From: Candidatus Gottesmanbacteria bacterium | GTDB taxonomy: Bacteria > Patescibacteriota > Microgenomatia > UBA10105 > UBA927 | DNA: 64,000 nt | Direction of reading: 5' to 3' | Assembly (NCBI GenBank): GCA_963790805.1 | Contig: CAWBPL010000002.1 | Location: 320,696 to 384,695, forward strand | Shown: positions 444 to 21,646 of the stretch, piece by piece | Position numbering within the stretch: the first letter of the stretch is position 1 | Layout of the letters: each line of letters begins with the position of its first letter | Translations under genes and position numbers: made by a program | The notes under the pieces: generated by a model | What the model was told of the DNA's origin: nothing | The model's input: the letters and a program-made list of their open reading frames with translations, nothing else | Database searches by the model: none

Positions 444-546
444 GAAGTGATTATACCATTGAGGCGTGTTTGTATAACCGCAATGATACAAATAGATTAT
501 CAAAATGGGCTAAAATAATTTAACCTCCAACTGTAGAGATTGTTCG

Positions 547-1089
547 CTACTTAAATAAATCAATCACCTCGGATGGTCTATATCCAGATTCTTTATTCAT
601 CATCCCAGCATGAACAATTTGTAAATCGGCGTGCAAGCTTTCTTGAATCCTCTTTGGTATGGTTAAAGGAATATAGGGATCGTTATCGGAGGCTATTAAA
701 TAAACTTTGTCTGATTTTCCGTTCACTTTAGTATAATCAATAGGTGGTTTATATAAATCTGCTGTTTCCCCTGCTCCAAATGAAAGCGGACAATCAAATG
801 GGGCCAAACCAACAAATTTATCAATTCGCTCGTTTTGAGAAAATGAAGCCAACAACTGAAGTGCAAAAGTAAAACCCGAACTGTATGCTACTATTGACCA
901 ATCGGTGTTAAACGTTGTCGATACTTTTCGGGCTGCGGTCAACCAATCTTTCAAGATGGGTCGTTGCGAGTTTGGAAAACTTGGATTATAAACCTTAAAC
1001 CCAAGTTGTTCCAATTCGTTTTTTAACCACGGGATCCAATAACTTTCTCCGTTATCTTCCCAACCGTGAATAATTAATATTTCCTTCAT
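547..1089 (-). CDS. alpha/beta-fold serine hydrolase (YdeN/RBBP9-like)
   Basis: 180 aa. It has the ILIIHGW start, a nucleophile-elbow-like AYSSG, and the size typical of the small Ser_hydrolase family. Confidence 0.6.
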   Translation of the reverse strand: MKEILIIHGWEDNGESYWIPWLKNELEQLGFKVYNPSFPNSQRPILKDWLTAARKVSTTFNTDWSIVAYSSGFTFALQLLASFSQNERIDKFVGLAPFDCPLSFGAGETADLYKPPIDYTKVNGKSDKVYLIASDNDPYIPLTIPKRIQESLHADLQIVHAGMMNKESGYRPSEVIDLFK

Positions 1090-1131: not shown

Positions 1132-1211
1132 AATAATCAAGCTTTGAACAAGAAAGGACGTTCGGTGTTTTTATAACTATTTCAATTTGGTAAAAACAAT
1201 TATACGTTCTT

Positions 1212-4108: not shown

Positions 4109-4192
4109 TCCAAAATTATAACAAATCTCGTACGCTGGTATTTAGAGGCTTAAATACTGATGATATTTTTATTACTTTTGATTGATAGAACA

Positions 4193-4235
4193 ATCTAAAC
4201 TGCCATTTGCTCCGAGCGGTAGAGAATATTCAAAC
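4193..4235. repeat. intergenic repeat core, copy A (type 1; full unit about 4142-4235)
   Basis: atctaaactgccatttgctccgagcggtagagaatattcaaac. Confidence 0.85.
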
Positions 4236-4250
4236 TTATTTTATCTCTTC

Positions 4251-5012
4251 CTAAGTGACGCGTGGGTGGCATCTATACTTTATATACTCATTGTATAAAG
4301 TATTTGTCATCGCGGTTTTGTAGATTGGACCATATTTCCTGACATGTAAAAAAGCTTTACTCCAAATTAAAAATAATTTTGTTCTCCCTATTTTTCTCAT
4401 ACTCCGATCAGAACCATATACAAGAATTTGAAAGAAAAAATAATATCGAGCACCATTTTTTATCGAGCGCAGACCATAATCCGTATCTTCTCCAAGAATC
4501 GCATCCTCTTTAAATCCATTAATGTTCTCATGATTTCTTTTTGAAGTAAGAATAAAATCTCCATTAATGACTGGACTCCTCCCGAGATAGGCGATGAAGA
4601 AAAGAATATAAACAATACCGAGAAAAAAATAATCCGTAAAATAGAGATTATCTGAACTATGAAACGCAGTCGCTACGAAAAGACTGACTACTGCTTTGCT
4701 ATAAAGCGTATTTAAACATTCGTTCGCGAGTATAACATCCGCATCCAAAAATAAAAGATACCGATACTTCGCCTTACGAGCGCCAACATTCCGTTGATGT
4801 CCTATGTCTCTCTTGGTAGTCAAAAGAGATAAATCTTTAATCTTGCCGTTAAACTTCTTTGCCAGTTTAATCGTGTCATCTGTGGATTCCCCGTCAACGA
4901 TAATTACCTCTAACTTACCTCTATAATTTTGGTCCACAATAGACCGCAATAATCTAGGCAAATATATTTCCTCGTTAAGTGTCGGAATAATTATTGAAAG
5001 TTCATCAATCAT
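4251..5012 (-). CDS. family 2 glycosyltransferase
   Basis: LSIIIPTLNEE...VIIVDGESTDDT...LDADV motifs. I moved the start to MIDELS because TATAAT (5019-5024) sits 6 nt upstream of it. Confidence 0.8.
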   Translation of the reverse strand: MIDELSIIIPTLNEEIYLPRLLRSIVDQNYRGKLEVIIVDGESTDDTIKLAKKFNGKIKDLSLLTTKRDIGHQRNVGARKAKYRYLLFLDADVILANECLNTLYSKAVVSLFVATAFHSSDNLYFTDYFFLGIVYILFFIAYLGRSPVINGDFILTSKRNHENINGFKEDAILGEDTDYGLRSIKNGARYYFFFQILVYGSDRSMRKIGRTKLFLIWSKAFLHVRKYGPIYKTAMTNTLYNEYIKYRCHPRVT

Positions 5013-5045
5013 GAGGTGATTATAGCAAAATGTGTACACCTCAAT

Positions 5046-5135
5046 TAGACGGCTTCAGTGCTGGTACGTATTGATATTTTAGCTTTTCAATATACTCTAA
5101 ACAATTTCTCCACAAAAACGTGGGAATATTCAAGC
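5046..5135. repeat. intergenic repeat, copy K (type 1, degenerate)
   Basis: ttagacggcttcagtgctgg...ctctaaacaatttctccacaaaaacgtgggaatattcaagc aligns with copies A and I. Confidence 0.6.
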
Positions 5136-5420
5136 TTGCTATGTAATAAACACATTGAAAATTATTTACTTTTTTTCAATTCTTCATTGACCCACTTTAA
5201 TTTTTCCTCCAACATTTTCTTTTTCATTTCGAGATGTTCTTTGGACATCATATGCTCCTTACAGCAATCCATCATCATCCAATGTTCACCGTGACCAAAT
5301 TTTTTATCCATCATATGTTTCACCTCCCCTCAATTATTAAAGTATATATATTCTCTATAAGAAGAATAATGCATAAATCTGAAAATATGCTGAAGGAAAA
5401 TACATTTATTCCATCTTGAT

Positions 5421-5470
5421 GGGCTCCGAACGATAGAGGTCCTTCAATAGACTCAGGACAAGTTGTTAGG
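5421..5470. repeat. intergenic repeat, copy B (type 3, with hairpin extension)
   Basis: gggctccgaacgatagaggtccttcaatagactcaggacaagttgttagg. Confidence 0.8.
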
Positions 5471-5524
5471 AATTTGTTGTACTCATTTTCAATTGCCTTA
5501 CTACTTATTTGCTTAATTAGTCAA

Positions 5525-5710
5525 TCACTTTAAGTGAATATAACCCCAAATTCCAATTGCAACTATTTCAATAACACTAATCAAAAATACCTGCAAACCA
5601 AGCGGGTATGTTCTTGAATGTATCCTGTTCGTAATGGCCCAGTAAAACACGAAATTATTAACGGATATAATAATTGCGACAAAAACGATAAGTCTTGTTG
5701 TGAGTTCCAT
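5525..5710 (-). CDS. small two-TM membrane protein
   Basis: 61 aa, hydrophobic, flanked by repeat modules. Confidence 0.4.
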   Translation of the reverse strand: MELTTRLIVFVAIIISVNNFVFYWAITNRIHSRTYPLGLQVFLISVIEIVAIGIWGYIHLK

Positions 5711-5767
5711 AAAAAGATCTCCTTACAAATACATTGTCCTCTCAATTCAAAGGAAGTCAATTTTGAA

Positions 5768-5828
5768 GCTAAATCGTGAACTGCGAGTAGCAGAGGATCC
5801 TTCGAAGACTCAGGACAAGTTGTTCGGG
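5768..5828. repeat. intergenic repeat, copy C (type 3)
   Basis: gctaaatcgtgaactgcgagtagcagaggatccttcgaagactcaggacaagttgttcggg. Confidence 0.75.
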
Positions 5829-5832
5829 CTTT

Positions 5833-6519
5833 TTATACCATAATTTCCTGACTTTGATCTTGCACTACTCGCCCACCAACATCAGCAAATCCATCACCCG
5901 TTGGCTTTGCGTAAATCACTGATCCTTTCCCATGATGTATCTCAAGTTCACACCCCAACATACTAGCTAATTGCATTGATCCTGATCCATTTGCTTCGTC
6001 TTCAGGAATACCCCAATCAGACGCAAACGTACGAGCCCTTACCATTCCTTTATTCTGTTCCATCCACGCCCATAGCACGGTGTGCTCCAATTTCTTCGTT
6101 TCGGTTAACGGCATATTTTCTATTGCATATGCGTCCTGAAGTTGAGCATGATGCCAAGGAGGTGTCCCCTTAAGACTTGATCTTATCCATGTCAATCCTT
6201 TTTCCTCGTACGTTTCCAGTTGCCCAGCTTTACATACTAAAAATCTTAAAGGGTGTCCACGAATCATTTTAAGAAAATATGACGTTCCCACCAATGCATG
6301 ACCGGCAAAGTTTACTTCCTTCTTTGGATTATAGATACTTACCGTTCCGGTTTCTGCGTTATCAATAAACACCGACTCGCTAAAATTAAGTCTTGTAGCT
6401 ATTACTTGTCTAACCGTTGTTTCTAAAACTCGTTTTTCGTCTTGAATGATCCCTACTGGGTTACCGAATTTATTATCGTTATTAACAAAAACACGCAAGA
6501 TCTTGATAGCGACAACCAT
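5833..6519 (-). CDS. PhzF-family isomerase-like protein
   Basis: FGNPVGII near the N-terminus and a GGRV C-terminal end, typical of the PhzF fold. TATAAT lies 6 nt before the ATG. Confidence 0.7.
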   Translation of the reverse strand: MVVAIKILRVFVNNDNKFGNPVGIIQDEKRVLETTVRQVIATRLNFSESVFIDNAETGTVSIYNPKKEVNFAGHALVGTSYFLKMIRGHPLRFLVCKAGQLETYEEKGLTWIRSSLKGTPPWHHAQLQDAYAIENMPLTETKKLEHTVLWAWMEQNKGMVRARTFASDWGIPEDEANGSGSMQLASMLGCELEIHHGKGSVIYAKPTGDGFADVGGRVVQDQSQEIMV

Positions 6520-6593
6520 GGGTTGATTATACCAAGAAGTTCGAACGTCCTGCCGGACTCAAAATATACGCGGCGTCAATATACTCAAATAAT

Positions 6594-6624
6594 TTTGCTC
6601 CGAGCGATAGAGGATGTTTAAAAT
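6594..6624. repeat. intergenic repeat, copy D (type 2; full unit about 6524-6624)
   Basis: ttttgctccgagcgatagaggatgtttaaaa. The upstream part aligns with 12650-12720. Confidence 0.8.
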
Positions 6625-6650
6625 TGTTATTCAAAACTTTGTTGAGGCTG

Positions 6651-6679
6651 TTGACAAATAACCGGTACTTCGTAATAAT
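6651..6679 (+). promoter_or_regulatory. sigma70-type promoter for the TMEM43-like gene
   Basis: TTGACA (6651-6656), a 16-17 nt spacer, then TAATAAT. Confidence 0.55.
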
Positions 6680-6696
6680 CTTATAAACGCATCACC

Positions 6697-7830
6697 ATGC
6701 CAGACCAAATTGTAGAAACATCGACCACAGGTTGGCTTCAGAGAATACTGAACTCTTTTTTGGGCATCCTCATGGGTCTCGCGTTATTCATCGGATCATT
6801 TGTCGTTTTATATTGGAATGAAGGACATTTCGATTTATCGAAAGATGCGAAAAAAGCAGTACAGATAACGGCGACTCAACCTTCGAACCCGAGTCTTAAC
6901 GGAAAACTTATCGCAGTGACCGGGCCGGTCTCATCGACGGAAACCCTAGGTGATGGCCTGTATCTGAAACCGACGAATATACTCGCGTTAACAAGGAAAG
7001 CGGAAATTTTTGAGTGGAATGAAAGTCAACAATCAAGTTCCAAAACAAATATCGGTGGATCCAATACGTCAACCACGACATATACATATGCGCTTGACTG
7101 GACGGATTCGCCCCATGACTCATTGCAATTCAAGAATCCAACTGGACACGTAAATCCGAAAAAGACAATTGATGATATGACACTCAGGGTCAAATCAGCT
7201 CAGATTGGAAATTATTCACTCGACATGCAAACAATTGATCTGCCGTCATTCTCACTGATTCCATTAAACCAAGACAATACCATTGTCACAACCAACACAA
7301 CAGTAGGTCCTGATTATGTGTATATCGGTCACGGCACACTCGAATCTCCTCAACTGGGCGACATGCGGGTGAGCTACAGCGGACTTTCCGACAATACAAC
7401 GTTAACGGCGATGGGCGCTCAGAATAATACTATGGTTTCGTCTTATTATGACGCTGGCGGACATAAACTCTATCGCTTGTTCGAAGGATCTTTGGGTGAC
7501 GCCGTAGCAACGCTTCACAAAGAATACCAGCTATGGATTTGGATATTCAGAGGTGTCGGGTTTCTCATGATGTGGATCGGACTTATGCTGTTTTTCGGGC
7601 CGATCAGCGTTATATTGGACGTGTTACCGGTTTTCGGCGGAATAAGCCGGGGCGCAATCGGATTTCTGACATTTCTCTTATCGGTCCTGCTGTCTGCCGT
7701 CACGATTCTGGTCTCAATAGTCCTGCACAGCATTATATTCTTAATCGGCGCGGTCGTCGTCGCATTTCTTATTTTTATGGGGATTGCCCACGCTCACCGA
7801 ATGAGCACTACATCCACTTCAGCAAAATAA
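6697..7830 (+). CDS. TMEM43/DUF1625-family membrane protein
   Basis: N-terminal TM followed by YWNEG, a long extracytosolic domain, and a C-terminal TM cluster. Confidence 0.65.
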   Translation: MPDQIVETSTTGWLQRILNSFLGILMGLALFIGSFVVLYWNEGHFDLSKDAKKAVQITATQPSNPSLNGKLIAVTGPVSSTETLGDGLYLKPTNILALTRKAEIFEWNESQQSSSKTNIGGSNTSTTTYTYALDWTDSPHDSLQFKNPTGHVNPKKTIDDMTLRVKSAQIGNYSLDMQTIDLPSFSLIPLNQDNTIVTTNTTVGPDYVYIGHGTLESPQLGDMRVSYSGLSDNTTLTAMGAQNNTMVSSYYDAGGHKLYRLFEGSLGDAVATLHKEYQLWIWIFRGVGFLMMWIGLMLFFGPISVILDVLPVFGGISRGAIGFLTFLLSVLLSAVTILVSIVLHSIIFLIGAVVVAFLIFMGIAHAHRMSTTSTSAK

Positions 7831-7892
7831 TAAAATTCTCCTCGTGAATAATTTTACTCCACTTAATGAACGATCTTAGAAACTTCTACATA

Positions 7893-8222
7893 TCACTTTG
7901 AGTCTGTTTTGCGAGCGTCTCTATGCTGTTTATTAAGCATTGCTTGTACCGAAGGGCTTATCTGCTTATCCGTACGGTGAATACAGCCGATCCAGCAACA
8001 TGGCCGACGCATCCCCTCTTTAAGTTCTCTACCTACTCTTTCTACATGCTGCTTTCTGGTTTCCGATTTTTGAACGGAAATTGTCCAGCAAATCCATTCA
8101 TTGCGTGCAAGTGGTGTAAGATCCTCCCACGCGGCGAACGCTTTCGGATCAGAAGTTAAAGCTTCACGCAAATCCTCTGGAACTTTGTGTACTACACCGC
8201 TTGAAACGTTTTTTTTAGTCAT
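7893..8222 (-). CDS. YdeI/OmpD-associated family protein
   Basis: PEDLREAL...AWEDLTPLARNEWICWI pattern. Confidence 0.7.
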   Translation of the reverse strand: MTKKNVSSGVVHKVPEDLREALTSDPKAFAAWEDLTPLARNEWICWTISVQKSETRKQHVERVGRELKEGMRRPCCWIGCIHRTDKQISPSVQAMLNKQHRDARKTDSK

Positions 8223-8241
8223 CGGTTATCTTAATAAACTT

Positions 8242-8670
8242 CTACGCGTTCTTCTTTTTCATGTACTGAAACGAGGTTTCTATTAGTTTTGCCAGAACTG
8301 TTTGGTCTACATCAGAAAGTTTGTTGATATATAAACAACCTCCAATTCCTCCACTCTTGGCATGTTTCCCCAATTTTTCCAGTAAAGCAGAGCTGTCTTC
8401 ATTCCCATGCATAATATAGAGAGTAAGGTTTTGTTTTCGTGGAGAGAATCCTACCAAAAACCAGTCTCCTTCCTGTTTACTTTTTTCTGATTTGTAATGA
8501 TACTTTCCAAACCCAACGATACTAGTTCCCCACATTACCGCTTTTTCTTTGGTAACTTTCTCAAACATTTCAAGAAGGCTAAGACCGTCCAACTTCTTTT
8601 GTTCTTGTTCAATACTATTGAGAAAATCTTTCGGACTTTGATTCGTAATTTTGGTTTTTACCTCTGCCAT
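8242..8670 (-). CDS. DUF1801 (YdhG-like) domain protein
   Basis: MWGTSIVGFGKYHYKS...FSPRKQNLTLYI pattern. Confidence 0.7.
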   Translation of the reverse strand: MAEVKTKITNQSPKDFLNSIEQEQKKLDGLSLLEMFEKVTKEKAVMWGTSIVGFGKYHYKSEKSKQEGDWFLVGFSPRKQNLTLYIMHGNEDSSALLEKLGKHAKSGGIGGCLYINKLSDVDQTVLAKLIETSFQYMKKKNA

Positions 8671-8673
8671 ATT

Positions 8674-9273
8674 TTACTCAATTGATCCTGTTCTGACTTT
8701 ACCTGCCCGTTTGAATGAAGCGATAATTACCCCACTTGGAGATGTTTTGGATTCTGTTAATTTAAACGCTGCAGGAATAGTGCCTTTATCAAACAAGCGT
8801 TTTCCCTTTCCAAGAGTTATCGGGAAAATTTTTAACCAAAGCTCATCAACTAAATCATTTTTAAGAAGTGCTTGAACTAAATTTCCACTACCATAAACTT
8901 GCAAATCCGGACCACTTTGTGTTTTAAGTTTTTTTAATTCTTCAACAACATTGTTATGTATGAATACAGTGTTACTCCATTCGTGTTTTTTAAGAGAATT
9001 TGAAACAACATACTTTGTGGCATTATTAATTCCGGGCCATTCATTTGTATGCTGGGGCCAGTATGAAGCAAAGATTTCAAACGTAATTCTCCCTAGAAGC
9101 AGACTAAAAGGCTCCTTCATCTGCTCGGCCATGACTTTTCCAGAAAAATCATCAAAATAAGGAGCGGTCCACCCGCCGTATTTAAAATCACCTGAGGTAT
9201 CTTCTTTGGGTCCACCGGGAGCTTGAATAACACCATCAAGAGAAAGAAATTCGAGAACAATTATTTTTCTCAC
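8674..9273 (-). CDS. dihydrofolate reductase-like (RibD C-terminal domain) protein
   Basis: MRKIIVLEFLSLDGVIQ...VYGSGNLV motifs. GTG start with TATAAT 6 nt upstream. Confidence 0.75.
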   Translation of the reverse strand: MRKIIVLEFLSLDGVIQAPGGPKEDTSGDFKYGGWTAPYFDDFSGKVMAEQMKEPFSLLLGRITFEIFASYWPQHTNEWPGINNATKYVVSNSLKKHEWSNTVFIHNNVVEELKKLKTQSGPDLQVYGSGNLVQALLKNDLVDELWLKIFPITLGKGKRLFDKGTIPAAFKLTESKTSPSGVIIASFKRAGKVRTGSIE

Positions 9274-9305
9274 AATTGTATTATAACATACAATCTTGAG
9301 GCTAA

Positions 9306-9357
9306 TTTGCTCCGAACGGGAGAGGAATCTTCGATAGATTCAGGACAGGTTGTTTGG
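9306..9357. repeat. intergenic repeat, copy E (type 3)
   Basis: tttgctccgaacgggagaggaatcttcgatagattcaggacaggttgtttgg. Confidence 0.8.
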
Positions 9358-9442
9358 ACTTTTTTTATATCTAAATCAATAATTTCAGAACCAATACGTT
9401 TTAATTGTAAATCCTATAGTAATATTGTATAATCATTAACAT

Positions 9443-9964
9443 ATGGTGCAGTTAGAAACTGGAATGTTTATCTCTAGGGGTTTTGACATCCAGAACCCTG
9501 ATTCAAAATATTTTCAACTGTCACAGGCTGCTATACAAAAAACTCTCGAAGTTTTTACATCGGCAGATTTTTGGCAGACACAAATGCTTCTCCCCTCACT
9601 GAGAAGACTTTCAAGACTATTTGACATGGAACCGGTTGAAGTCGGTTTGAAAAAACCTGATGACGTCCTTTTTGATTTAAAAGGCATGAATGAAAAAGGA
9701 ATTGTAGTTGAAGATATACATAAATCGTTACGACAAATTCAACTTTTATGCTGTGCGTATTATCCCCTTGCAGAATATAAAGCTAATAAAAGTGATGCCG
9801 ATATATATTTTGATGCAGATGAAATAACTGATATTGCAAAATTTGTCGTTGATACGGTAGTTTGGAAAACATTTGCGTTTAATAACGCCGATCCAAAAGA
9901 AAATGTCTATGAATTAAGAAGAAAAATAGGTGGTAACCTTAAGAAGCTTAGAGAAGTGGCTTAA
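9443..9964 (+). CDS. hypothetical protein
   Basis: 173-aa ORF, no motif recognised. Confidence 0.45.
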   Translation: MVQLETGMFISRGFDIQNPDSKYFQLSQAAIQKTLEVFTSADFWQTQMLLPSLRRLSRLFDMEPVEVGLKKPDDVLFDLKGMNEKGIVVEDIHKSLRQIQLLCCAYYPLAEYKANKSDADIYFDADEITDIAKFVVDTVVWKTFAFNNADPKENVYELRRKIGGNLKKLREVA

Positions 9965-10075
9965 AAAATTTATAGTACTGAAAAATACTACGGGGGTAAA
10001 TTTTCTCTCGAGTCAAGTGATCGACCTCTATTTGATGACGAACGTAGTGAATCTTTCGAAGAAGGATCTCTGACG

Positions 10076-11248
10076 ATGGCTACCTATGATAGGGAAGAAG
10101 ATGAACTAGGAAATCAATTTGCTTTTGATTATCTAAAACATTGGGGTGGTAAGACATTTCCTACAGATGAGGCTATGAGTAATATACAAACAATAGGGAG
10201 AAAAATAGGTTTAGCCAAAATAATGTATTTAATTGCAAAAATGGATAACCGGTCTCAAATAGCATTCTTAGCTTATCTTGGATATTTTGGTGAAAATAAA
10301 AGAGAAATAATTAAAGTAGCAGAATCTGCGGGCATAGGCCGAACTGTAATCAGAGCTGATTTATGGAGAGTAAGTTTACAGCTTGATAAACTATATACTC
10401 CTGAAATGGTAAAATTACTTGAATTTGCAACCCCAGCGCCAATTTATCCTCAGGTTTTAGCTCATAGCTTAGTTGGGGAAAAAGCTCTAAGAATAAATGG
10501 TAGTGTCCTAACTCCCAATTCAGCCAGATTATTTTTAAAAAGATTCAGTGAAGGAAATGACTTTAATACATTCCGACAATCAATAACTCCCAAAGAAGCA
10601 AAAATTTTGGATATGGCTTTAGTAATGGATAGTGAAAATTTTTCTTTAAACGACGAGCAAATTTCACGGAAAGTAGGTCTTAAACCTGTCCGGGTACGAA
10701 ACATTATCGTTTCATTAAGAAAAAGGGCGGAAAATTCAATCGTTAAATTTATTAGTCAAGATGGAAGAATGTTAAAAGAAACAGACGCGCAATATAGTTT
10801 GATTCTCAAAAGGAGAACAATTGAACAATGGCAACTATCATGTCTTTCACCACAGCAATATCAGGTCTTTTTAGAACTTACCCAACCTGACGAAGATGGA
10901 AGGTATCCATCTCAGGAAAAAACATTTAAAGATTGCGGAGTTACAGACGATCATTTAGTCGCCATCATTTTAAGAAAATTAAATAACCCTGCGATAGTAA
11001 AAGAAATTACTGATTTAAGAACAAAGGTAGCGTTTATATTAAATCATCGTGAAAAATATTCAGATAGCGATCAAAAAGTAGCGACATTTATTGAAGAGCA
11101 AATTTCACAGGGTGTTCCTTTATGGTCAAAAAAGGGTATTGGCTTTACGGGAATTGCAATACAACTAGGGCTAAAACCACGACATGTATTATCTTTATTT
11201 GGAGTCAGGATTAAGAATAAGCTTGAAAACGCTTCTGTAAGCAACTAG
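10076..11248 (+). CDS. hypothetical protein with about four sigma70-region-4/LuxR-like HTH units
   Basis: Repeated pattern: IAESAGIGRTVIRADLWRV, ISRKVGLKPVRVRNIIVSLRKRA, CGVTDDHLVAIILRKL and IAIQLGLKPRHVLSLFGVRIKNKL. Confidence 0.55.
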   Translation: MATYDREEDELGNQFAFDYLKHWGGKTFPTDEAMSNIQTIGRKIGLAKIMYLIAKMDNRSQIAFLAYLGYFGENKREIIKVAESAGIGRTVIRADLWRVSLQLDKLYTPEMVKLLEFATPAPIYPQVLAHSLVGEKALRINGSVLTPNSARLFLKRFSEGNDFNTFRQSITPKEAKILDMALVMDSENFSLNDEQISRKVGLKPVRVRNIIVSLRKRAENSIVKFISQDGRMLKETDAQYSLILKRRTIEQWQLSCLSPQQYQVFLELTQPDEDGRYPSQEKTFKDCGVTDDHLVAIILRKLNNPAIVKEITDLRTKVAFILNHREKYSDSDQKVATFIEEQISQGVPLWSKKGIGFTGIAIQLGLKPRHVLSLFGVRIKNKLENASVSN

Positions 11249-11326
11249 ATACAAAGAATATTTTTGAACCAGCAAGAAAGGTTGACAGAATAATCCAAAC
11301 AGGAGATATTGAATCTCTCCGTCCTA

Positions 11327-11357
11327 TTTTGCTCCGAGCGGTAGAAGACATTCGGAC
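11327..11357. repeat. intergenic repeat, copy F
   Basis: ttttgctccgagcggtagaagacattcggac. Confidence 0.8.
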
Positions 11358-11442
11358 TATCTCCACTTGCATGCACGCATGGCAATATATATTACAAACA
11401 TACCTATTGGGAGCTAAAACCAATAAACCAAACCACACTAGA

Positions 11443-11895
11443 TTAAACATTCTTTTGATTTAATTTTAGATATGGCAAAATTAAAATTGCCAAAATCAGA
11501 GCAATCCCTCCAGCAAGAAAAATCATCATATTTGGAGCTGCTTCTCTTGTATCAAAACAATACCAATCATTGGTACCGCTTATTCTAATTGATTTAGGAT
11601 TTTGGGAATCATAAATCATATTTATAGCGTCCCCAACCTTTGGCCCGTAGCCAGCGCCATCCTTACAATGAGCCCAATAGTCAAAGGTAGCAATGTAGTT
11701 ATTACCAAACGTAAGATTTATCGTGTGATCATTTTCGGAGTACGAAACAACATGGCCAATAGTAGAAATAGCTCTACTATGAAAGTCGTAGTATGAAATC
11801 AATCCTTTGATAGAAAAATAGCAAATAACCACTCCTATTAATATAAAAAATATCTTAACGATTAGAAAATTGGGCTTATTATTTTCCATATGCAA
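11443..11895 (-). CDS. DUF3592-like membrane protein
   Basis: TM, beta-rich domain, TM architecture; 150 aa. Confidence 0.5.
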   Translation of the reverse strand: MHMENNKPNFLIVKIFFILIGVVICYFSIKGLISYYDFHSRAISTIGHVVSYSENDHTINLTFGNNYIATFDYWAHCKDGAGYGPKVGDAINMIYDSQNPKSIRISGTNDWYCFDTREAAPNMMIFLAGGIALILAILILPYLKLNQKNV

Positions 11896-12616
11896 ATATC
11901 ATTATTACTCTAATCACAGTTAACAAAAGACCAATTGAACTTAAGATAATTCCCCAAGTTATAGCTTTACTATTCACAGATTTCCTTGCTCGAACTCCCG
12001 TTATAATTCCCGGAATACCGCCAGCTATTCCAAGGTAAGGTACAAAAAATCCAGTTAAACTAAAAATACCGGAAGTTAAACACAGCACTGGTAATATATT
12101 ACTTTGGGGGTTTGTAGATTCGATTTTTTCTAGGTTAACTCCAGGTTGAATCATAGCTGCAAAATTTTCAACCGCTTTTTGCGCAGTATGCTGATTAATT
12201 AGCCCCTCTTTAGCTACCGCTCTTAATAATATTTCAGTACCTCCACCAGAATTTTGAGAAACAAAAATTCTTAATATTGCAGGGTTAAGATTAGATATTC
12301 CTGAATGAACCACTGCTGAAATTGTGCCGGGAGATAAATTCGGTTCTTTGATCAAATTTCCGCCGATTTTTTTGATTACCTCCAAACATCTCGAATTGAT
12401 TGCTTCAGAATTATCTGTAAATTGGAATCGGGCAGAATAATCTTTTTCTTTAAGAAGCATCGCTCCCAGTTCTGCTCCTTTTTCGCCAGCAAAAGTATCC
12501 CAAGATACTGGCGCAAAACGCATCAAGAAAAATGGCCTACTCTTTGCCGTCTCAGCACCACTAATAGCTCCAATTTTCCCTAGTTCTTTGTTTAAAATCT
12601 GACTATCGTTATCCAT
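11879..12616 (-). CDS. hypothetical protein with C-terminal TM helices
   Basis: 245-aa ORF. It overlaps the next gene by 17 nt, which suggests an operon. Confidence 0.5.
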   Translation of the reverse strand: MDNDSQILNKELGKIGAISGAETAKSRPFFLMRFAPVSWDTFAGEKGAELGAMLLKEKDYSARFQFTDNSEAINSRCLEVIKKIGGNLIKEPNLSPGTISAVVHSGISNLNPAILRIFVSQNSGGGTEILLRAVAKEGLINQHTAQKAVENFAAMIQPGVNLEKIESTNPQSNILPVLCLTSGIFSLTGFFVPYLGIAGGIPGIITGVRARKSVNSKAITWGIILSSIGLLLTVIRVIMIFAYGK

Positions 12617-12720
12617 ATTTATAGTTTCAATGTCTCTTGCTGCACAAATTAATTATATCAAGAGTTCAAAGGTCCTGCCGTACTCCAAAATGCGGATTGT
12701 CCTACTAAGCTAAAATCGTA

Positions 12721-12750
12721 AACTCCGAGCCGTAGAGGATGTTCGGAACC
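12721..12750. repeat. intergenic repeat, copy G (type 2; full unit about 12650-12750)
   Basis: aactccgagccgtagaggatgttcggaacc. Confidence 0.8.
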
Positions 12751-12846
12751 TATTACTTACTTAAAAACCGCTCTTCTATTCTGGAAATATGCCTATATCG
12801 ATAGGTTACGGAAACTGACGACTAATACGCAGTAGTTAAAGTACGA

Positions 12847-12873
12847 GTTCCGAGCGGTAGAGAATGTTCAAAC
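12847..12873. repeat. intergenic repeat, copy H
   Basis: gttccgagcggtagagaatgttcaaac. It abuts the stop codon of 12868..13083. Confidence 0.8.
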
Positions 12874-13083
12874 TGATTTATTTTGATAAAGCAGAAAAAT
12901 ATTGAGAGTCAATAGGAAAAACAAACTGATATACGAGATTTTTTGAACTATCGTACCACTAAACCCCTCATCAATCCCGTTGTATGTAATCCAGCAAATA
13001 AAGATGATATTGCCGAAAATGGCAAAATAACGGAATATTTTAAACCAATTATTCATCTGTAATAAAGTTACAAACCAAAGCAA
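12868..13083 (-). CDS. small membrane protein
   Basis: 71 aa, two hydrophobic helices. Confidence 0.4.
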   Translation of the reverse strand: MLWFVTLLQMNNWFKIFRYFAIFGNIIFICWITYNGIDEGFSGTIVQKISYISLFFLLTLNIFLLYQNKSV

Positions 13084-13355
13084 ATTTTACCCACACATGC
13101 CCATGGTAAATCTCCATCAAGATACCATTTCCCCTGAAACTTCACTATTTTAATCGTTTGACCAGACTGTATTTTACAGATTCCATACTCCGAAGTTTGT
13201 TGTAGTAATTGCACACACCCCCGAAATGCATAATAGTTTGCAAATGTACTGTGGGCTTTTCTCAGAAGTAGATATTGATTGACCATCATAATGGCAATCA
13301 ATATCCCGATCAGAAGTATAGTAATCATCAATATTTTATTTTTTAAGAGTTTCAT
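13068..13355 (-). CDS. small signal-anchored protein
   Basis: ATG at 13355 with TATAAT (13363-13368) 7 nt upstream, and an N-terminal TM. Confidence 0.45.
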   Translation of the reverse strand: MKLLKNKILMITILLIGILIAIMMVNQYLLLRKAHSTFANYYAFRGCVQLLQQTSEYGICKIQSGQTIKIVKFQGKWYLDGDLPWACVGKICFGL

Positions 13356-13441
13356 CAACGCAATTATATCAAATTGAAGTAAACTAAAATTAGAAGGCTT
13401 AAATGCTGGCGTGATAATAGTTGATTTAGACTGTCAGAACT

Positions 13442-13484
13442 CTCTAAACTACCATTTACTCCGAGCAATAGAGGATGTTCAGAC
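13442..13484. repeat. intergenic repeat, copy I (type 1; full unit about 13392-13484)
   Basis: ctctaaactaccatttactccgagcaatagaggatgttcagac. Confidence 0.85.
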
Positions 13485-13562
13485 TTTTTATTTATAAATA
13501 AAATGCACTTACTAACTAACTAGAGAATGGTTTTTAATTAAATTCTTGATCTCGAAGTTTTG

Positions 13563-14222
13563 TTAGACCGGTAACTCGAGACCGGATGCGTGCCAGTCCT
13601 TCAGGAATTTATCCTGCCCGAGCTTCGTTAGAGGATGATTTGTCATACTCTTAAGAATTACAAACGGAACAGTGGCAATATCCGCACCCATTTCAGCAAC
13701 TTGAGAAACATGCTCCACGTCATGCATGCTTGCGGCTAAAATTTTCGTGGCGAAGTGATAATTGTTGTAAATGTGCCGAATCCGCGCAATGAATTGATCA
13801 CCCAATCCGTCCGTAAAATCATCAACTCTACCCAAGTACGGAGAAACGAACGACGCGCCGACTTTCGCGGCAAGAAGCGCCTGATTCACGCTGAAACAAA
13901 GCGTCATGTTTACTTTAACACCCTCTTTTGTCAATTTCTTGGTCGCTTCGTAGCCAGATAGTGTACAGGGAATTTTGGCGTAGACATTGGACTTTAATTT
14001 TGAAAGTGCTCGGGCTTCTCGAAGAATTCCCTCCACGTTATCGGAAATCGTTTCCAGACTCACCGGACCGTCTACCATATCGAGAATTTCTTTCACTATA
14101 TCTTTGTATGGTTTCCCAACTTCCGATGCCAATGTCGGATTCGTGGTTACTCCATCGATAAAACCCCATCGAAGTGCTTCTCGTATTTCATCAGGCTTGG
14201 CTGAATCGATAAACAGTTGCAT
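13563..14222 (-). CDS. tal: transaldolase / fructose-6-phosphate aldolase (short type)
   Basis: MQLFIDSA...GVTTNPTL...VKVNMTLCFS...SPYLGRVDD are hallmark motifs of this family. Confidence 0.9.
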   Translation of the reverse strand: MQLFIDSAKPDEIREALRWGFIDGVTTNPTLASEVGKPYKDIVKEILDMVDGPVSLETISDNVEGILREARALSKLKSNVYAKIPCTLSGYEATKKLTKEGVKVNMTLCFSVNQALLAAKVGASFVSPYLGRVDDFTDGLGDQFIARIRHIYNNYHFATKILAASMHDVEHVSQVAEMGADIATVPFVILKSMTNHPLTKLGQDKFLKDWHASGLELPV

Positions 14223-14327
14223 ATCATCAGTCTAACAAAAATTATCACGAGAAGGAAATCGTCGAATGTATTGCATATTAACATACATGAAAATATTGAT
14301 TCTAATCAAAATAAGATTGTCTATACA

Positions 14328-14361
14328 CTCTAAACTCCATTTAGCTCCGTGAGCCTAGGAC
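14328..14361. repeat. intergenic repeat, copy J (degenerate, last copy)
   Basis: ctctaaactccatttagctccgtgagcctaggac. Confidence 0.5.
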
Positions 14362-14621
14362 TATTATGACCCTAAATTTCACCTCGATTATGCAGCTTCA
14401 GAAACCTAAGCTATATGGGTGAAATGAGGCAAAGGTGGGAAGATAAGATTACATAGGAATGTTGCCCACTCCGCCTGGCTGTCCCGTACGTGAGTGGCAT
14501 GGTCACCGTGATACAACATATACCTAGATATAGATGGCGTCCTCCTAGTGACGACGACAACTTAGCGATTTCGCCATGATTTCTTGACTATGTTACGTCC
14601 CACTACCTACCTACTGGCTAA

Positions 14622-14941
14622 CGGCACACTGCCTCGGTAAATATTGCCTATACCCATGCCTTTATAGAACGAACATTTCCTCCAAAAACACTTGCAGTAG
14701 CCAAACGTATCCAACCGACAATTTGGGTAACCAATAAAACAGAAGCGATAGATTTTACGAAGCCGTTTCTATGGTTTGATGACGACCTATTTGAAGGAGA
14801 ACGAAAGGATTTAATCAAACACAATGCACTTGATAACTGGATAGAGGTAGATTTTCGAAAAGATGTCAACTATTTACAAAGATTTCTGGCCAGTTTCCCG
14901 ATACCAATTGAAATAGTGCAATTCAAGCATTCCAAAACCTA
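14622..14941 (+). pseudogene. start-less gene fragment (possibly a HAD-like C-terminal part)
   Basis: My own translation gives an open frame with no start codon: ...FIERTFPPKTLAVAKRIQPTIWVTNKTEAIDFTKPFLWFDDDLFEGERKDL... Confidence 0.35.
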
Positions 14942-15666
14942 AGCTATATTGGCGAATTAAGACAACGGTGGGAGGAAATAAAGAAACTACAGATTAGTCC
15001 AATCGGTACTACTATGGCTTCTGGCAAGATGGAAGAACAACCCAAAGCCATACTAAACCTGCCTTCAGCCATTCCTTTCTTCGCTTCCTCGGCAGATATT
15101 TCTGGCCATTTCTAGTTCTATCTCGTAGGCAACGATTTGGAACAGTTTGGATACTCTCTTGTTTGATAGCTATGTTCACTTACTTTGTAAAGCCCTTGAG
15201 TTTCGATAATTTCTATTTGTCCTGCATAATGTTTTTCGACAACCTCATAAATAAAGGCGAACTATTTCGTCAGGAACTATTAGCTCACCATCTAGTCCAA
15301 TTATCTTTTTCTTTTCAGGGTTTAGAGGTCTGTATTCGTAAACACCTGGTACTTTACTTAGGCTTGAGTCAGTTTCATTCCACAATGAAGCGAATATCTC
15401 GTAGGCTGAGCCCTTATGTCCTTGTTCATCCATAAATATCACTTCTGAATATCTGATGGTAAAAGGATTTGGAGAGATGAACTTTTTAATCTTAAGCTAA
15501 AACTTTTTACAGAAGTATCGGATAAAAGCAGGGTGGCATATAACTTAGCTCTTATGTTTGTATTTTGTGTATCCACTAAAGCAAGTAAATCAATACCTAA
15601 AGCGGAAGACATATTTTGTGCTGCTTTGGTATATGAGAGTTTGAAACAATTGCACCCTTCTTAGCT

Positions 15667-15951
15667 TTAATATCTCGTAGCTTCAGTATTAAATGCTTCA
15701 ATAATTGGAACATCTAACGGTCTTTTATAATCTTTACATTCAAAGGCAATAAACTCATATTCCTCAGGTTTAATAAGCTGCACATCAACTTGGCGTTTAA
15801 CCTTAGATAGCTGTCCTTCTAAATGGACATTTTTATAAACCTGTTCCTGTGGATTGAGAGATTGAACTACTTTATAGGAGCTTTCTTCAAATTTTTCCCA
15901 CTTCTTTTTCATAATCAGCGACCCACCAGTGCTATCTCTCAATAAATTCAA
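15667..15951 (-). CDS. restriction-endonuclease-fold (Mrr-cat-like) small protein, possibly truncated
   Basis: The D...E-C-K pattern (VDVQLIK...FIAFECKDYKRPLDV) is typical of a PD-(D/E)xK core. It is only 94 aa. Confidence 0.45.
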   Translation of the reverse strand: MNLLRDSTGGSLIMKKKWEKFEESSYKVVQSLNPQEQVYKNVHLEGQLSKVKRQVDVQLIKPEEYEFIAFECKDYKRPLDVPIIEAFNTEATRY

Positions 15952-15973
15952 AAGGTATTGTCTATCGCCGTGC

Positions 15974-17149
15974 TCATGAAACCAATTCTCCCTTCATTGC
16001 TTTATTTAACGTGCTTTCAAATAATTCATTTAGTAATTCTTTATTTAGTTTACTCAACTCAAAATACTTTCCAATACTTTGAAACTTTTCAATTACTTGT
16101 TCCTGTATATTAAGTGGCGGAATGGGGATTTGATAATTTTCAACAAAACTAACAGGAAGTCTTTTTTGCCCTGCTGAACCAGTCATGTGCAATTTGCCCT
16201 CGTTTCTAAACCGATTGCTATATACAAATAGCCATATCCAAATTGGTGCCACCTTTTTCTTATCAGCCCTGATAACAATGAATTCAGTTGACCCAAATCC
16301 AATACTTTCTGGACTTTTTCTGAATATCCCAGTTTTTCCATTTTCAAAACAGGGTGTTATTTTTGCGAGCAATACATCATCTGATTGGAAACATGTATAG
16401 CCAGTCTTAACCTGTTTTATTTTCCGCTTTTCTGTAAGAAATGGATTTTGTGCATCTGTTGCTAAGGCTGACATCGGTAAAAAATCAACCTCTTTTTCTA
16501 AATCCCATTCATGAAATTTTGGTTTTGGGGGATTTACCATTGCAACATCGCTTATTTTTTTTGTTGACCATTTATTTGTTAATGCAAAAACTAAGTTGAA
16601 AAAAGCATCAAATAATTCATCCGCTTTTTCAATTTCTTTTTGATTTAACTCTTGAAGTTTACTGATGGAATCTAATTTTTCAACAATCTGCTTTTGGATG
16701 GTCAAAGATGGAAAAGAAACAACCATTCGTTTCAACGCTGTTGTACTAAGTTCTTTGAAAGTGGTTCCAAAAGAATTTTGTTCTAATTTAGTTTTATTTG
16801 CTAATAACCAATATGCGAGAAACCAACTATCTATTTCTTGCGAAGGCGTAATTCCTTTAATACCCTGATTGTAAGCACTTACTTTTGAGGTAATTCCAAT
16901 GTTCCCTATCGTTGCCCGACTGGATAAAAGAATAGCGTTTTGGTCTACGACCTTGGTATACTTCAAAGCCTCTTCGCTTATTTGTCTTTCGCTATTTGAC
17001 AAGACAGATACAGTTCCTGAAGTAATTTCTGAGGGAGTAAACCAAGGATTGTTCCCATTAAAATGAGCTGCAATACTTGTTGGCGGTGTTCCACCACCGT
17101 TAATTACTGCGATATCATCTAACTTTTTGGTTTGCCAATTATTTTTCAT
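15974..17149 (-). CDS. hsdS: type I restriction-modification specificity subunit
   Basis: Two target-recognition domains separated by conserved coiled-coil spacers. It overlaps hsdM by 4 nt. Confidence 0.9.
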   Translation of the reverse strand: MKNNWQTKKLDDIAVINGGGTPPTSIAAHFNGNNPWFTPSEITSGTVSVLSNSERQISEEALKYTKVVDQNAILLSSRATIGNIGITSKVSAYNQGIKGITPSQEIDSWFLAYWLLANKTKLEQNSFGTTFKELSTTALKRMVVSFPSLTIQKQIVEKLDSISKLQELNQKEIEKADELFDAFFNLVFALTNKWSTKKISDVAMVNPPKPKFHEWDLEKEVDFLPMSALATDAQNPFLTEKRKIKQVKTGYTCFQSDDVLLAKITPCFENGKTGIFRKSPESIGFGSTEFIVIRADKKKVAPIWIWLFVYSNRFRNEGKLHMTGSAGQKRLPVSFVENYQIPIPPLNIQEQVIEKFQSIGKYFELSKLNKELLNELFESTLNKAMKGELVS

Positions 17150-18663
17150 TTGATAAAAGTTTTAATTTTCTTCAATTCCTCCTGCTGTTGTTCATTAAGA
17201 TTTTCAATCTCGGTAAATATCTCTTTTGGTTCCCTATATTGCGTTTCGTCTTCGGAAATAGGTCTATACGCTGAGGCGGAAAGAATAAAATCATTTGTTT
17301 CAATTTGTTCTTTTGTTGCTGACCAACTTCTTTCTGAATCTGATTTATTTTTCCATTTCTCAATCAAATCTGGTAAATCATTTTTGTCTGGGGTAGGTCG
17401 TCTTTGTGTCGCTAATTCAAATCCGTCAAAACGGACATCGTAAAACCAAACTTTTTCTGTTTTCTTACCGTTTCTATTAAAGAAAAGAATACTTGTTTTG
17501 ACACCTGCATAAGGTTGAAATACCCCTCCTGGTAAAGATACAACCGCTACTAAATTAGCTTTATCCATTAAGTATCTTCTGACCTCCTTGGCTGACCGAT
17601 TACGATTAAATAAAACACCCTCATTTACAATAACACCAGCTCTACCGCCCTGTCGTAAAGCATCAATCATAAGTCCCAAAAAGAGAGTTGTTGTATCACT
17701 TGCCTGAACAGGTAATGATTTTCTTATTCTTTCTTGGTTGATTGTTCCAGCAAAAGGAGGATTTGAAAGGATTACGTCAAACTCTCTGTCTTCCCATTCA
17801 TCTGGGGTACCAGCAACAGAATCTCTTCTAATTACTTGCGATTTTTCAAGACCATGAAGAACAAGGTTCATTGTGGCTATCTTTACCATAGCAGTGTCCA
17901 CATCAAATCCATAAAGGGTATCCGTTTGTAGAAATTGCCATTGAGTGGGACTTAATTTGTCTCCTGGTCCTTTCTTAATTAGCTGTCCGTTTCCATTCTT
18001 CGTTTCTTCAATGTTTTTCAAATCAGAATTACATAACTTAATCCACTCATATACTCCCAATAAGAAACCACCTGTTCCACTCGCCGTTCAATATAGTTTC
18101 TCCTATTTTAGGATTTACCAATTGGACAATTGTTCGGATTATATGTCTTGGGGTTCTGAATTGACCGTTTTTCCCAGACGTTGTTAATTGATTCAATAAG
18201 TATTCATACAAGTCACCCTTAACATCAGCGTCTAACTCCATGAAAGAAATATTCCTCTAAGTTTATCTACAACATCTCGTAATACAACTCCATCGGGTAT
18301 CTGAAATCTTGCATCAACAAAGAATCTCCTGACAGATTCGTTTGTTCCAGGAATGTTTGCCATAAAAGCAAACACTTCGTCTCGGACAAACTTGAACATT
18401 TTGGTGTTGTCAGGGATATGAACCCATTGACTCCATCTATATTTCTCGTTTTCTCCATCAAAAATTGACTTGTAACCATTTTTGTTGCCCAGAAGTTTGA
18501 CCTCTTTAGCTTTTTGGTTATCCCATTCTTCAAGCATTTTCAGAAAAAATAAGTAAGATATTTGTTCAATATAGGTAATGGGGTTAGTTAATCCAGCTGC
18601 CCAAAGTTTATTGCAGATTTGGTCTATAGCCGACTGTAATTGTTGTTTTGTTGTGATACTCAT
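17146..18663 (-). pseudogene. hsdM: type I R-M methyltransferase subunit, interrupted by two frameshifts
   Basis: Three consecutive ORFs (18232-18663, 18047-18241, 17146-18060) carry HsdM_N, then GDLYEYLL...GQFRTPRHI, then NPPF. Motif I ([15 protein letters not shown]) is readable only in a shifted frame around 18060-18085. Confidence 0.85.
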
Positions 18664-20876: not shown

Positions 20877-20907
20877 ATTTATTTTGATTTTTTATGATGA
20901 TTAACCG

Positions 20908-21096
20908 CTAGGTTCCTTTTTTAATTATTGCTTTTATATCCTCTAACTTATACCTTCTATCACCAACGCCTCGTCTATTACCAATTCTAACGGCTTTTAA
21001 CTTCCCTAGCCTATCCCATCTCCTTAGAGTTTCAGGATTGATACTCAACATTGCTGCTACCTCACGGATTCTAAGCAGTTTAACTTTTTTAGCCAT
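20908..21096 (-). CDS. excisionase/MerR-type HTH DNA-binding protein
   Basis: LRIREVAAMLSINPETLRRWDRLGKLKAVRIG. It is a paralogue of the N-terminus encoded at 58797. Confidence 0.75.
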   Translation of the reverse strand: MAKKVKLLRIREVAAMLSINPETLRRWDRLGKLKAVRIGNRRGVGDRRYKLEDIKAIIKKGT

Positions 21097-21581: not shown

Positions 21582-21594
21582 ACGATTTACTTGT

Positions 21595-21646
21595 AGCTAT
21601 ATACGCACAACAGTACAACGCACTATTAGTAGATTTGTCTATTGAT
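21595..21646 (+). promoter_or_regulatory. 52-nt duplicated promoter/operator, copy 1
   Basis: 49 of 52 nt are identical to 22547-22598. It contains the TACTA-T-TAGTA palindrome and is followed by TTGATT-N17-TATAAT. Confidence 0.6.

Follow-up and report, generated by a model that had tools for sequence, protein, structure and literature searches.

A run of small, functionally unrelated genes lies between about 0.5 and 14.35 kb of the 64,000-nt stretch of DNA analysed here (the window), which is part of a 1.22-Mb contig (CAWBPL010000002.1) of a Candidatus Gottesmanbacteria bacterium. In our opinion, this region is best read, with some confidence but not with certainty, as a chromosomal gene-cassette array of a Candidatus Gottesmanbacteria-like bacterium of the candidate phyla radiation (CPR, or Patescibacteria), specific to this lineage and recombining site-specifically. 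A short repeat is confined to one locus per genome, where all its copies are co-oriented and the arrays are anchored at tRNA genes. Among the relatives, which are Candidatus Gottesmanbacteria metagenome-assembled genomes (MAGs), the gene content between the repeats differs, the same cassettes are found with other neighbours, and homology breaks at the repeat. These observations bear out the suggestion of the initial annotation that the region is a gene-cassette array or another system of repeat-mediated gene shuffling.

The repeat, hereafter the core, is 27 nt long and reads GCTCCGAGCGGTAGAGGATGTTCGRAC. The 16-mer GCTCCGAGCGGTAGAG, with three or fewer mismatches, is matched eight times in the window (at 4209, 5423, 6597, 9309, 11331, 12722, 12847, and 13458), each time on the + strand, compared with 0.13 matches expected from shuffled sequences. 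The 26-nt degenerate pattern RYTCCGARCNRTAGARRAYRTTYRRA, which extends into the core's right part, has six matches, compared with none in shuffles. An nhmmer profile of the core recovers the same eight copies with E-values of 1e-9 to 1e-5; elsewhere in the window (50 kb), only weak fragments and nothing comparable were matched. Strong copies span 4.2–13.5 kb only, while two decayed cores push the left limit of the array to about 0.5 kb. Two short fragments noticed previously near 1168 and 55527 proved to be, respectively, the right half of one of these decayed cores and a left arm of the type 2 described below (Table 1).

Initially, 11 copies of the shared core had been reported. Eight are the strong copies listed above, and with 0.13 expected by chance they do not fit the notion that the copies align no better than shuffled sequence; the other three need qualification. 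The copy at 5768–5828 has a weak core (E 0.65), yet it is homologous to the others through its type-3 extension and through an orthologous copy in L008 (loci and contigs outside the window are designated by L numbers). The copy at 5095–5135 retains only the flanks (CTCTAAAC ... GAATATTCAAGC), the middle being different, and is missed by the core profile. In the copy at 14328–14361, the left part is a genuine type-1 arm, but the sequence from 14350 on belongs to an inserted mobile element.

The three module subtypes distinguished in the window are real and are found again in other genomes. In type 1, the core is joined by CTCTAAAC and, farther to the left, by GGCTTAAATGCTGG and GTACAC, which adjoin the TGnTATAAT box of the left gene; modules homologous to the one at 4142–4235 are present in L006, L012, L021, and L008. 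Type 2 adds a left arm that repeats the right part of the core in inverted form (e.g., AGTCCGAACCGTCCTACCG vs CGGTAGAGGATGTTCGGACT). In type 3, about 25 nt are inserted in the core ahead of a displaced, GTTCGGAC-like right end. Many cores are armless, and some are only 8–10 nt away from the neighbouring gene. The units delimited by cores measure 0.1–2.7 kb and contain zero to four genes each. Pfam agrees with the earlier assignment of these genes to unrelated families, namely GT2 (a glycosyltransferase family), PhzF, TMEM43, YdeI/OmdA, DUF1801, RibD_C, and transaldolase.

Table 1. Repeat modules, inserted element and tRNA anchor; positions refer to the window unless a locus is named
Feature	Position	Strand	Description
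Decayed core	525..550	+	CTCCAACTGTAGAGATTGTTCGCTAC; read in sequence, weak nhmmer match; outermost recognisable repeat, distal end of the array
Right half of decayed core	1152..1167	+	GAAAGGACGTTCGGTG; sequence reading and profile
Type-1 module	4142..4235	+	Left arm TTAGAGGCTTAAATACTG, then CTCTAAAC; core 4209-4235
Type-1 variant	5045..5135	+	Left arm, CTCTAAAC and GAATATTCAAGC retained; core middle replaced by CTCCACAAAAACGTGG
Type-3 module	5423..5472	+	Core-left, ~25-nt insertion TCCTTCAATAGACTCAGGACAAGTT, displaced right end GTTAGGAA
Type-3 module	5768..5829	+	Diverged core-left ACTGCGAGTAGCAGAGG, right end GTTCGGGC; orthologous to L008 9120-9174
Type-2 module	6538..6623	+	Left arm AGTTCGAACGTCCTGCCGG, an inverted copy of the core's right part; core 6597-6623
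Type-3 module	9309..9359	+	Between divergent genes; right end GTTTGGAC
Core	11331..11357	+	Between convergent genes
Type-2 module	12663..12748	+	Left arm AGTTCAAAGGTCCTGCCGT; core 12722-12748
Core	12847..12873	+	125 nt past the previous core; intervening unit without an open reading frame ("empty" cassette)
Type-1 module	13390..13484	+	Core 13458-13484
Terminal half-module	14314..14349	+	Type-1 left arm ..CTCTAAACTCCATTT; ends in AGCTCC, truncated by the insertion
Mobile element, 14.2 kb	14350..28556	.	Separates the array from tRNA-Asp; not a part of the array
hsdS	15974..17149		Type I restriction-modification gene of the 14.2-kb element
hsdM	17146..18663		Type I restriction-modification gene of the 14.2-kb element
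hsdR	18660..20876		Type I restriction-modification gene of the 14.2-kb element
HNH gene	24513..25286		14.2-kb element
HTH_36 gene	26307..26687		14.2-kb element
Large serine recombinase	27061..28692		Reading frame continues into the antisense of tRNA-Asp
tRNA-Asp(GTC)	28560..28827	-	Group I intron in the anticodon loop (Rfam Intron_gpI 28605-28808); exons read in sequence
Solitary type-2 left arm	55522..55539	+	TAATCCGAACGTCCTACC; 29 nt from the 3' end of tRNA-Ser(cga)
Second repeat system	L003 3321-3345, 3961-3985, 1925-2000, 3385-3446; L002 7100-7180

A profile scan of Candidatus Gottesmanbacteria MAGs and of peat and sediment metagenomes yielded 45 core copies in 23 loci, with the consensus TTTTGCTCCGAGCGGTAGAGGATGTTCGRACTTT. 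Positions 7–33 of this consensus are strongly conserved between genomes, and core positions 9, 10, and 12 are invariant in all 45 copies. Among 185,579 species genomes, the core pattern matched three stretches, one of which is the single stretch found in a complete 1.09-Mb Gottesmanbacteria chromosome; metagenome contigs, mostly from peat and sediment, contributed 19 stretches. None of 2.9 million viral contigs was matched, and phage or plasmid carriers of the core were rejected on this basis.

Wherever cores are found, they are clustered, and each genome has one such locus. In all 11 loci that have two or more cores, the cores share the same orientation; for the 24 additional cores, the probability of this under random orientation is about 6e-8. 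The orientation is independent of the strand of neighbouring genes; flanking genes are on either strand. The 10 kb to the left of the window (L033) contain larger housekeeping-type genes and no cores, and L034 has two cores beside a tRNA and none across the next 7 kb. The size of the array differs among relatives: the window has at least 12 cores, L034 has two, in L030 none was detected, and the cores of L024 are diverged.

The second line of evidence comes from the exchange of cassettes. Individual cassettes (those of TMEM43, a 61-aa gene, YdeI, DUF1801, and genes A, Y, and Q) are shared in differing combinations among the window, L008, L015, L017, L006, L021, and L001. Gene A is reshuffled between L006 and L008, gene Y between L006 and L021, and YdeI and DUF1801 among the window, L015, and L017. 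The check proposed initially, whether the gene content of relatives changes exactly at repeat boundaries, thus returned a positive answer: the content differs between repeats, and homology breaks at the core. L015 and L017 are 100% identical for about 360 nt rightward from TTCGGAC and unrelated to the left of the core, with only two mismatches, both of which fall within the left part of the core (core-left), at positions 13 and 26, a placement with a chance of about 0.003 if random. In cassette Q, shared by L001 and L017, homology begins directly after ..GTTCG, with AACCTATTATG (AACC), and the preceding core-left sequences differ. The 61-aa cassettes of the window and L008 both have a type-3-specific core extension; their homology ends at GTTGTTCGG, beyond which other genes follow.

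These three comparisons have a resolution of a few bases; in each, homology breaks between core position 26 and TTCGRAC or just past it. This locates the exchange point at the core's right end, where ...GGAT(G/A) meets TTCGRAC. Read on the + strand, a cassette would therefore consist of TTCGRAC, the content, an optional arm, and GCTCCGAGCGGTAGAGGATG. This differs from the unit proposed initially, which extended from the stop codon of one gene to the promoter of the next. Such a span describes some copies, but a minus-strand open reading frame (ORF) ends within 45 nt of only 17 of the 45, and the boundary of the unit is inside the core. It should be noted that the contig with a homologue of the PAS gene (L035) has no cores, and that a look-up of P0001 returned only a 3.8-kb contig.

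The third line of evidence is the position of the arrays relative to tRNA genes. The homology shared by the window, L001, and L008 includes dnaG, rpoD, a gene for a conserved 225-aa protein, and tRNA-Asp, and ends no more than a few bases from the 3' end of this tRNA. Where the core would usually stand, L008 has the tRNA 3' end (AGCTCCCCCGCGTGGATTCGAACC on the + strand), preceded by a type-2 arm and ..TAAATCGTA. Analogously, a three-core array of L003 abuts tRNA-Ser(tga), at a spot where the window has just 12 nt. As with tandem tRNA-associated elements, arrays therefore adjoin tRNA 3' ends, i.e., that of tRNA-Asp in the window, L001, and L008 and that of tRNA-Ser(tga) in L003, and the solitary arm of the window is next to tRNA-Ser(cga). 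The 3' ends of tRNA genes are a classic target of site-specific (tyrosine) integrases. TTCGRAC can be aligned with the T-loop of the anchor, TTCGAAC, and GCTCC with its acceptor end; because of these two alignments, the core resembles a mimic of the tRNA 3' end. Compared with tRNAs alone, the similarity is not significant (245 of 500 shuffles reach the score). With the trailer included, the score is reached by 1 of 2000 shuffles for L030 and by 4 of 2000 for L003, and is not significant for L001 and L008. That the core is a plain tRNA fragment was rejected as unlikely, since ARAGORN finds no tRNA in the array and the tRNA alignment is no better than that of shuffles, being at most suggestive once the trailer is added.

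The non-palindromic, conserved 27-mer, the co-orientation of its copies, their restriction to one locus, the consistent exchange point, and the anchoring at tRNAs together lead us to regard the core as a recombination site acting at the level of DNA. According to the mechanism we propose, units would follow one another head to tail, linked by a conserved 27-nt double-stranded site, GCTCCGAGCGGTAGAGGATG followed by TTCGRAC, with the exchange taking place at the right end of the site. Each cassette would start with TTCGRAC on the + strand and end with the 20-nt core-left; in some cassettes, a type-1 or type-2 accessory arm comes before core-left. The array is anchored at the tRNA 3' end, the acceptor/T-arm standing in for the core, and a site-specific recombinase would insert, excise, and reshuffle cassettes, many of which have their own TGnTATAAT box 6–7 nt before the start codon. 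Site-specific recombination, its current activity, and the kind of enzyme are inferred; the likeliest enzyme would be a tyrosine recombinase whose gene lies at another place in the genome or on a visiting element.

Several observations weigh against this interpretation. No recombinase able to act on the core was found among the larger ORFs of the window, in the 10 kb to its left, in the arrays of relatives, or among cassette ORFs. Specifically, no Phage_integrase-type (tyrosine) recombinase is present among the window ORFs of at least 110 aa and several smaller ones, and none was found in the other three places. The sole recombinase near the array is the large serine recombinase of the 14.2-kb element, whose AGCTCC junctions and end repeats differ from the exchange point. 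The likeness of core and tRNA is significant only when the trailer is included, and then in two cases of four. Moreover, a cassette with an ordinary core that inserted at the T-loop would destroy the tRNA, yet the anchoring tRNAs are intact. The exchange point is derived from three comparisons, just one of which is between near-identical sequences, and neither circular cassettes nor empty sites were observed.

Two proteins of no recognisable family that are associated with arrays were considered as hidden recombinases and rejected: those encoded at 10076–11248 of the window and 11979–13076 of L008 are mutually unrelated and have no Pfam matches.

We consider it possible, although only as a tentative proposal, that the array exemplifies an undescribed cassette system of CPR bacteria. 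In such a system, cassettes would carry their own promoters, the 27-bp double-stranded core would mimic a tRNA, the tRNA would play the part of attI, and an enzyme of a new family or of the host would act in trans; functionally, it would be an integron assembled from different parts. In the literature that we searched, neither integrons nor cassette arrays were described from CPR bacteria.

The explanation that competes best with site-specific recombination, although it seems unlikely to us, is that the modules are a lineage-specific intergenic repeat located in a variable island, such as a promoter or terminator or an element of the repetitive extragenic palindromic (REP) or miniature inverted-repeat transposable element (MITE) kind, with the differences in gene content produced by ordinary insertions and deletions or by homologous recombination. 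In its favour, no dedicated recombinase was found, and type-1 and type-2 arms are at a fixed distance from the TGnTATAAT box of the neighbouring gene. On the + strand, the core could fold into a 7-bp hairpin with a run of T behind it, but this hairpin is not kept: in 19 of 45 copies a mismatch interrupts the stem TCCGAGC/GTTCGGA and is not compensated, C10 being invariant while its partner is A in these 19, and scans for promoter and terminator consensus sequences showed no enrichment. Type-2 modules resemble 85–100-bp elements with 20-bp inverted ends; inverted ends are, however, limited to this subtype, and target-site duplications are lacking. No transposase of the REP-associated Y1 (RAYT) type is present among the scanned ORFs.

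The initial annotation had also raised REP elements and bacterial interspersed mosaic elements (BIMEs) as an alternative, expecting uniform occurrence over the genome with conserved synteny. This was not what we found: in the window, in the 10 kb to its left, in L034, and in the complete chromosome of a relative, the core is not dispersed across intergenic regions. Strict co-orientation regardless of the genes, the loss of homology between shared cassettes at one and the same end of the core, and the retention of a non-palindromic 27-mer between species are likewise not what an intergenic repeat would lead one to expect.

Another explanation, to which we assign a rather low probability, is tandem accretion: the cores would be scars left by successive integrations of larger elements at the tRNA, which would have used serine or tyrosine integrases and have since decayed to between one and a few genes apiece, with no movement of small cassettes today. 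The location of arrays at tRNA 3' ends agrees with it, as do the extra tRNA-fragment repeats in L003 and L002, which are typical of such hot spots. Also in line with it, a 14.2-kb element encoding a large serine recombinase was inserted in the window exactly at the junction of the terminal module and the tRNA. AGCTCC is present at both junctions of the element (14344–14349 and 28557–28562), its ends are the inverted repeats GGGCTTATAATA and TATTATGACCC, and the reconstructed attP is about 51 bp long with inverted ends. Similar recombinases are found at the same tRNA-Asp end in L027–L029. These junctions and end repeats differ from the core and from its exchange point, and no serine recombinase of this family is present beside the arrays of L008, L024, and L034. 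Since L027–L029 carry related recombinases at tRNA-Asp and these three arrays lack them, the 14.2-kb element is taken to be an independent, later insertion.

Accretion also requires that elements decayed repeatedly and independently to units of 0.1–2.7 kb with the same core and arm types in several genomes, which is unlikely. Furthermore, the cores do not appear to have been copied from the tRNA end beside them, identical small cassettes turn up in different contexts, and intact core-bearing elements with an integrase of their own are absent from large collections (no match in the viral contigs).

Low probability is also given to a divergent integron array without a nearby integrase gene (a cluster of attC sites lacking integron-integrases, CALIN), in which the modules would be attC hairpins recombined by an IntI-type integrase encoded elsewhere. 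In integrons, exchange takes place between G and TT of the R' box (GTTRRRY), and CALINs by definition lack IntI. The exchange point between (G/A) and TTCGRAC parallels this position, and ORF-less cassettes and co-oriented sites are typical of integrons. In addition, type-2 modules show the layout R''-spacer-L'' ... L'-spacer-R' (e.g., AGTCCGAAC-CGTC-CTACCG ... CGGTAG-AGGAT-GTTCGGACT), with a significant duplex (p ≤ 0.02) in four copies, and in a two-helix model of type-1 modules 77.7% of cells are paired, compared with 31–50% in slid controls.

These features do not extend to the majority of sites. A complementary upstream arm was significant (p ≤ 0.05, duplex test against the right part of the core) for only 6 of 43 cores, essentially type-2 copies, and cores 8–10 nt away from the next gene leave no space for an arm. 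Covariation in the type-1 helices is no better than in shuffles (91 of 500 and 156 of 500 reach the observed values); on this ground and that of the few complementary arms, attC-like folding as a general feature was rejected. Position 31 varies between A and G against an invariant partner. Single-strand folding z-scores range from -2.4 to +1.0, mostly near 0 on both strands; it is the sequence that is conserved, not the structure. The right end of the core (GTTCGRA) and the type-2 left arm (TCCGAAC) keep GTT/AAC, but deviate from GTTRRRY/RYYYAAC at two of seven positions. Neither IntI nor attI was found in the 64 kb and the flanks. Because the expectations of a hairpin at every site, of covariation, and of the R-box consensus all failed and IntI is missing, we do not file the array as an integron.

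A further initial suggestion, a 3'-untranslated-region or processing RNA motif, is disfavoured by an orientation that ignores the genes, by folding z-scores near zero on both strands, and by the lack of any Rfam match in 3900–16000 at E ≤ 5 (at gathering thresholds, matches lie only outside the array); a known RNA family was thereby rejected, as was a terminator or other structured RNA, given also that consensus scans were not enriched and the 7-bp stem is not kept.

The large serine recombinase was likewise considered as the cassette enzyme and rejected, because it has its own end repeats and AGCTCC junctions, occurs at tRNA-Asp irrespective of arrays, and is missing from the arrays of L008, L024, and L034. 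Short-read data from the same sample include a contig (L004) whose end coincides exactly with the left junction of the element, at 14348, a hint of polymorphism for the element within the population. Within the element, 14370–15200 is relatively GC-rich and ORF-less, has no Rfam match, and contains a 47-nt direct repeat (14397–14443 and 14930–14976, 81% identical); possible explanations are a non-coding RNA and the remnant of a pseudogene. On the - strand, 15245–15951 contains three short consecutive ORFs, one with a weak match to PD-(D/E)XK nucleases, and looks like a frameshifted restriction-nuclease-like pseudogene beside the type I restriction-modification genes.

With respect to the cassette genes, an extended -10 box, TGnTATAAT, ends 6–7 nt before the start codon, without a Shine-Dalgarno sequence, at 4109–4135, 5013–5040, 6520–6537, 9274–9300, and 13359–13385. 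This placement suggests that several cassette genes are expressed from leaderless transcripts. The cassettes at 5320 and 5710 have a classic GGAGG site. A diverged type-2 module is found at 12747–12860 of L024, where the core is altered to ..CAATGGACGGTGTTCGAAAC and the left arm reads GGTTCGATCGTCCATCCG, ATGGACG/CGTCCAT being common to both arms; it is a possible single case of co-variation or gene conversion.

With respect to the tRNAs, ARAGORN makes no call for the intron-split tRNA-Asp. The 225-aa protein encoded 24 nt upstream of it (28852–29529, - strand) has a weak N-terminal transposase-type helix-turn-helix and a LAGLIDADG-like motif (LAGIAFYASEGTK), and it has more than 300 homologues, always in the order dnaG, rpoD, this gene, tRNA-Asp. 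A free-standing homing endonuclease and a regulator are two possible identities for this protein. All contigs that contain the copy of this protein from one relative (P0051; L036–L041) stop a few hundred bases past tRNA-Asp, consistent with strain-level variability downstream of the tRNA. At tRNA-Ser(cga), an aminotransferase gene (54243–55499) with a promoter and the type-2 arm (together 54226–55568) lies between a conserved gene and the tRNA, which are 2 nt apart in L003; this segment has the appearance of a lone cassette beside a second tRNA, with no recognisable core at the far end. The tRNA-linked islands of relatives contain a second repeat system, made up of 3' fragments similar to tRNA-Ser (GGTTCAAATCCCGCTTCCTCT) and an element of about 90 nt (GGCGGAGAAC...ACGGAACAATTNAATTATA) common to L002 and L003; these are probably att remnants of other integrative elements. 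Finally, a LOOT RNA motif (Rfam RF03000) is located at 63320–63434 on the - strand (66 bits vs a gathering threshold of 46.4).

CPR/Patescibacteria genomes are tiny (about 1 Mb), and to our knowledge the acquisition and exchange of accessory functions in these bacteria are poorly understood. If the interpretation as a cassette array is correct, a dozen-gene array would be a compact gene-capture platform for such a genome, its cargo including a glycosyltransferase, PhzF, TMEM43, a RibD_C reductase, and a transaldolase. It would also explain why assemblies break right past tRNA-Asp. Should recombination take place on double-stranded DNA at a tRNA-like core, the integron principle would have arisen with a different type of site, and attC-based searches would miss such arrays; the conserved 27-mer is a probe for cassette gene pools in metagenomes.

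Among known systems, MITEs and REP/BIME elements share with the array the short intergenic repeats, a GTAG inside the core, and the inverted ends of type 2. Unlike them, the repeat described here is not genome-wide, is mostly non-palindromic and strictly co-oriented, produces no target duplications, and is tied to gene content. Composite islands of the staphylococcal cassette chromosome (SCC) kind, which use serine recombinases at the 3' end of rlmH, are similar in having tandem cassettes at the 3' end of a conserved gene, short direct repeats, and some units without a recombinase, and a large serine recombinase element is indeed present at the same site in the window. This element, however, uses other junction sequences, the cassettes are far smaller, and the arrays of L008, L024, and L034 are without this recombinase family. 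Elements that exploit the Xer recombinases of the host, such as IMEX (integrative mobile elements exploiting Xer) at dif and the pdif modules of Acinetobacter plasmids, are likewise small modules that lack a recombinase, have a site of about 28 bp, and can form tandem arrays. A dif site consists of two 11-bp arms and a 6-bp spacer with inner palindromic arms; in the core, the dyad is limited to TCCGA...TCGGA, 10 or more nt apart, and inner positions are asymmetric. The anchor here is a tRNA instead of dif, and the sites are all direct repeats, whereas pdif sites alternate in orientation.

Tandem genomic islands and the accretion of cis-mobilizable elements (CIMEs) and integrative and conjugative elements (ICEs) have in common with the array the location at tRNA 3' ends, direct repeats similar to tRNA ends, and units without a recombinase. 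The units described here are ten to a hundred times smaller, with a dozen in a row, and their repeats, which do not appear to copy the adjacent tRNA, are one 27-mer found across genomes and at different tRNAs. Integron arrays, i.e., CALINs and sedentary chromosomal integrons whose attC sites are homogeneous, such as those with the Vibrio cholerae repeats (VCRs) of Vibrio, are alike in having co-oriented repeats at nearly all cassette boundaries, small unrelated accessory genes, ORF-less units, and content that differs between relatives. As in integrons, exchange would occur at the 3' end of the site, so that its last seven bases, TTCGRAC, go with the next cassette, and the type-2 subtype has a two-helix layout similar to that of R and L boxes. 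The differences are that most sites here have no complementary arm, conserve sequence instead of structure, and have R boxes off the consensus; that most ORFs are antisense to the site and have their own promoter; and that the array is anchored at a tRNA 3' end, in place of attI and intI.

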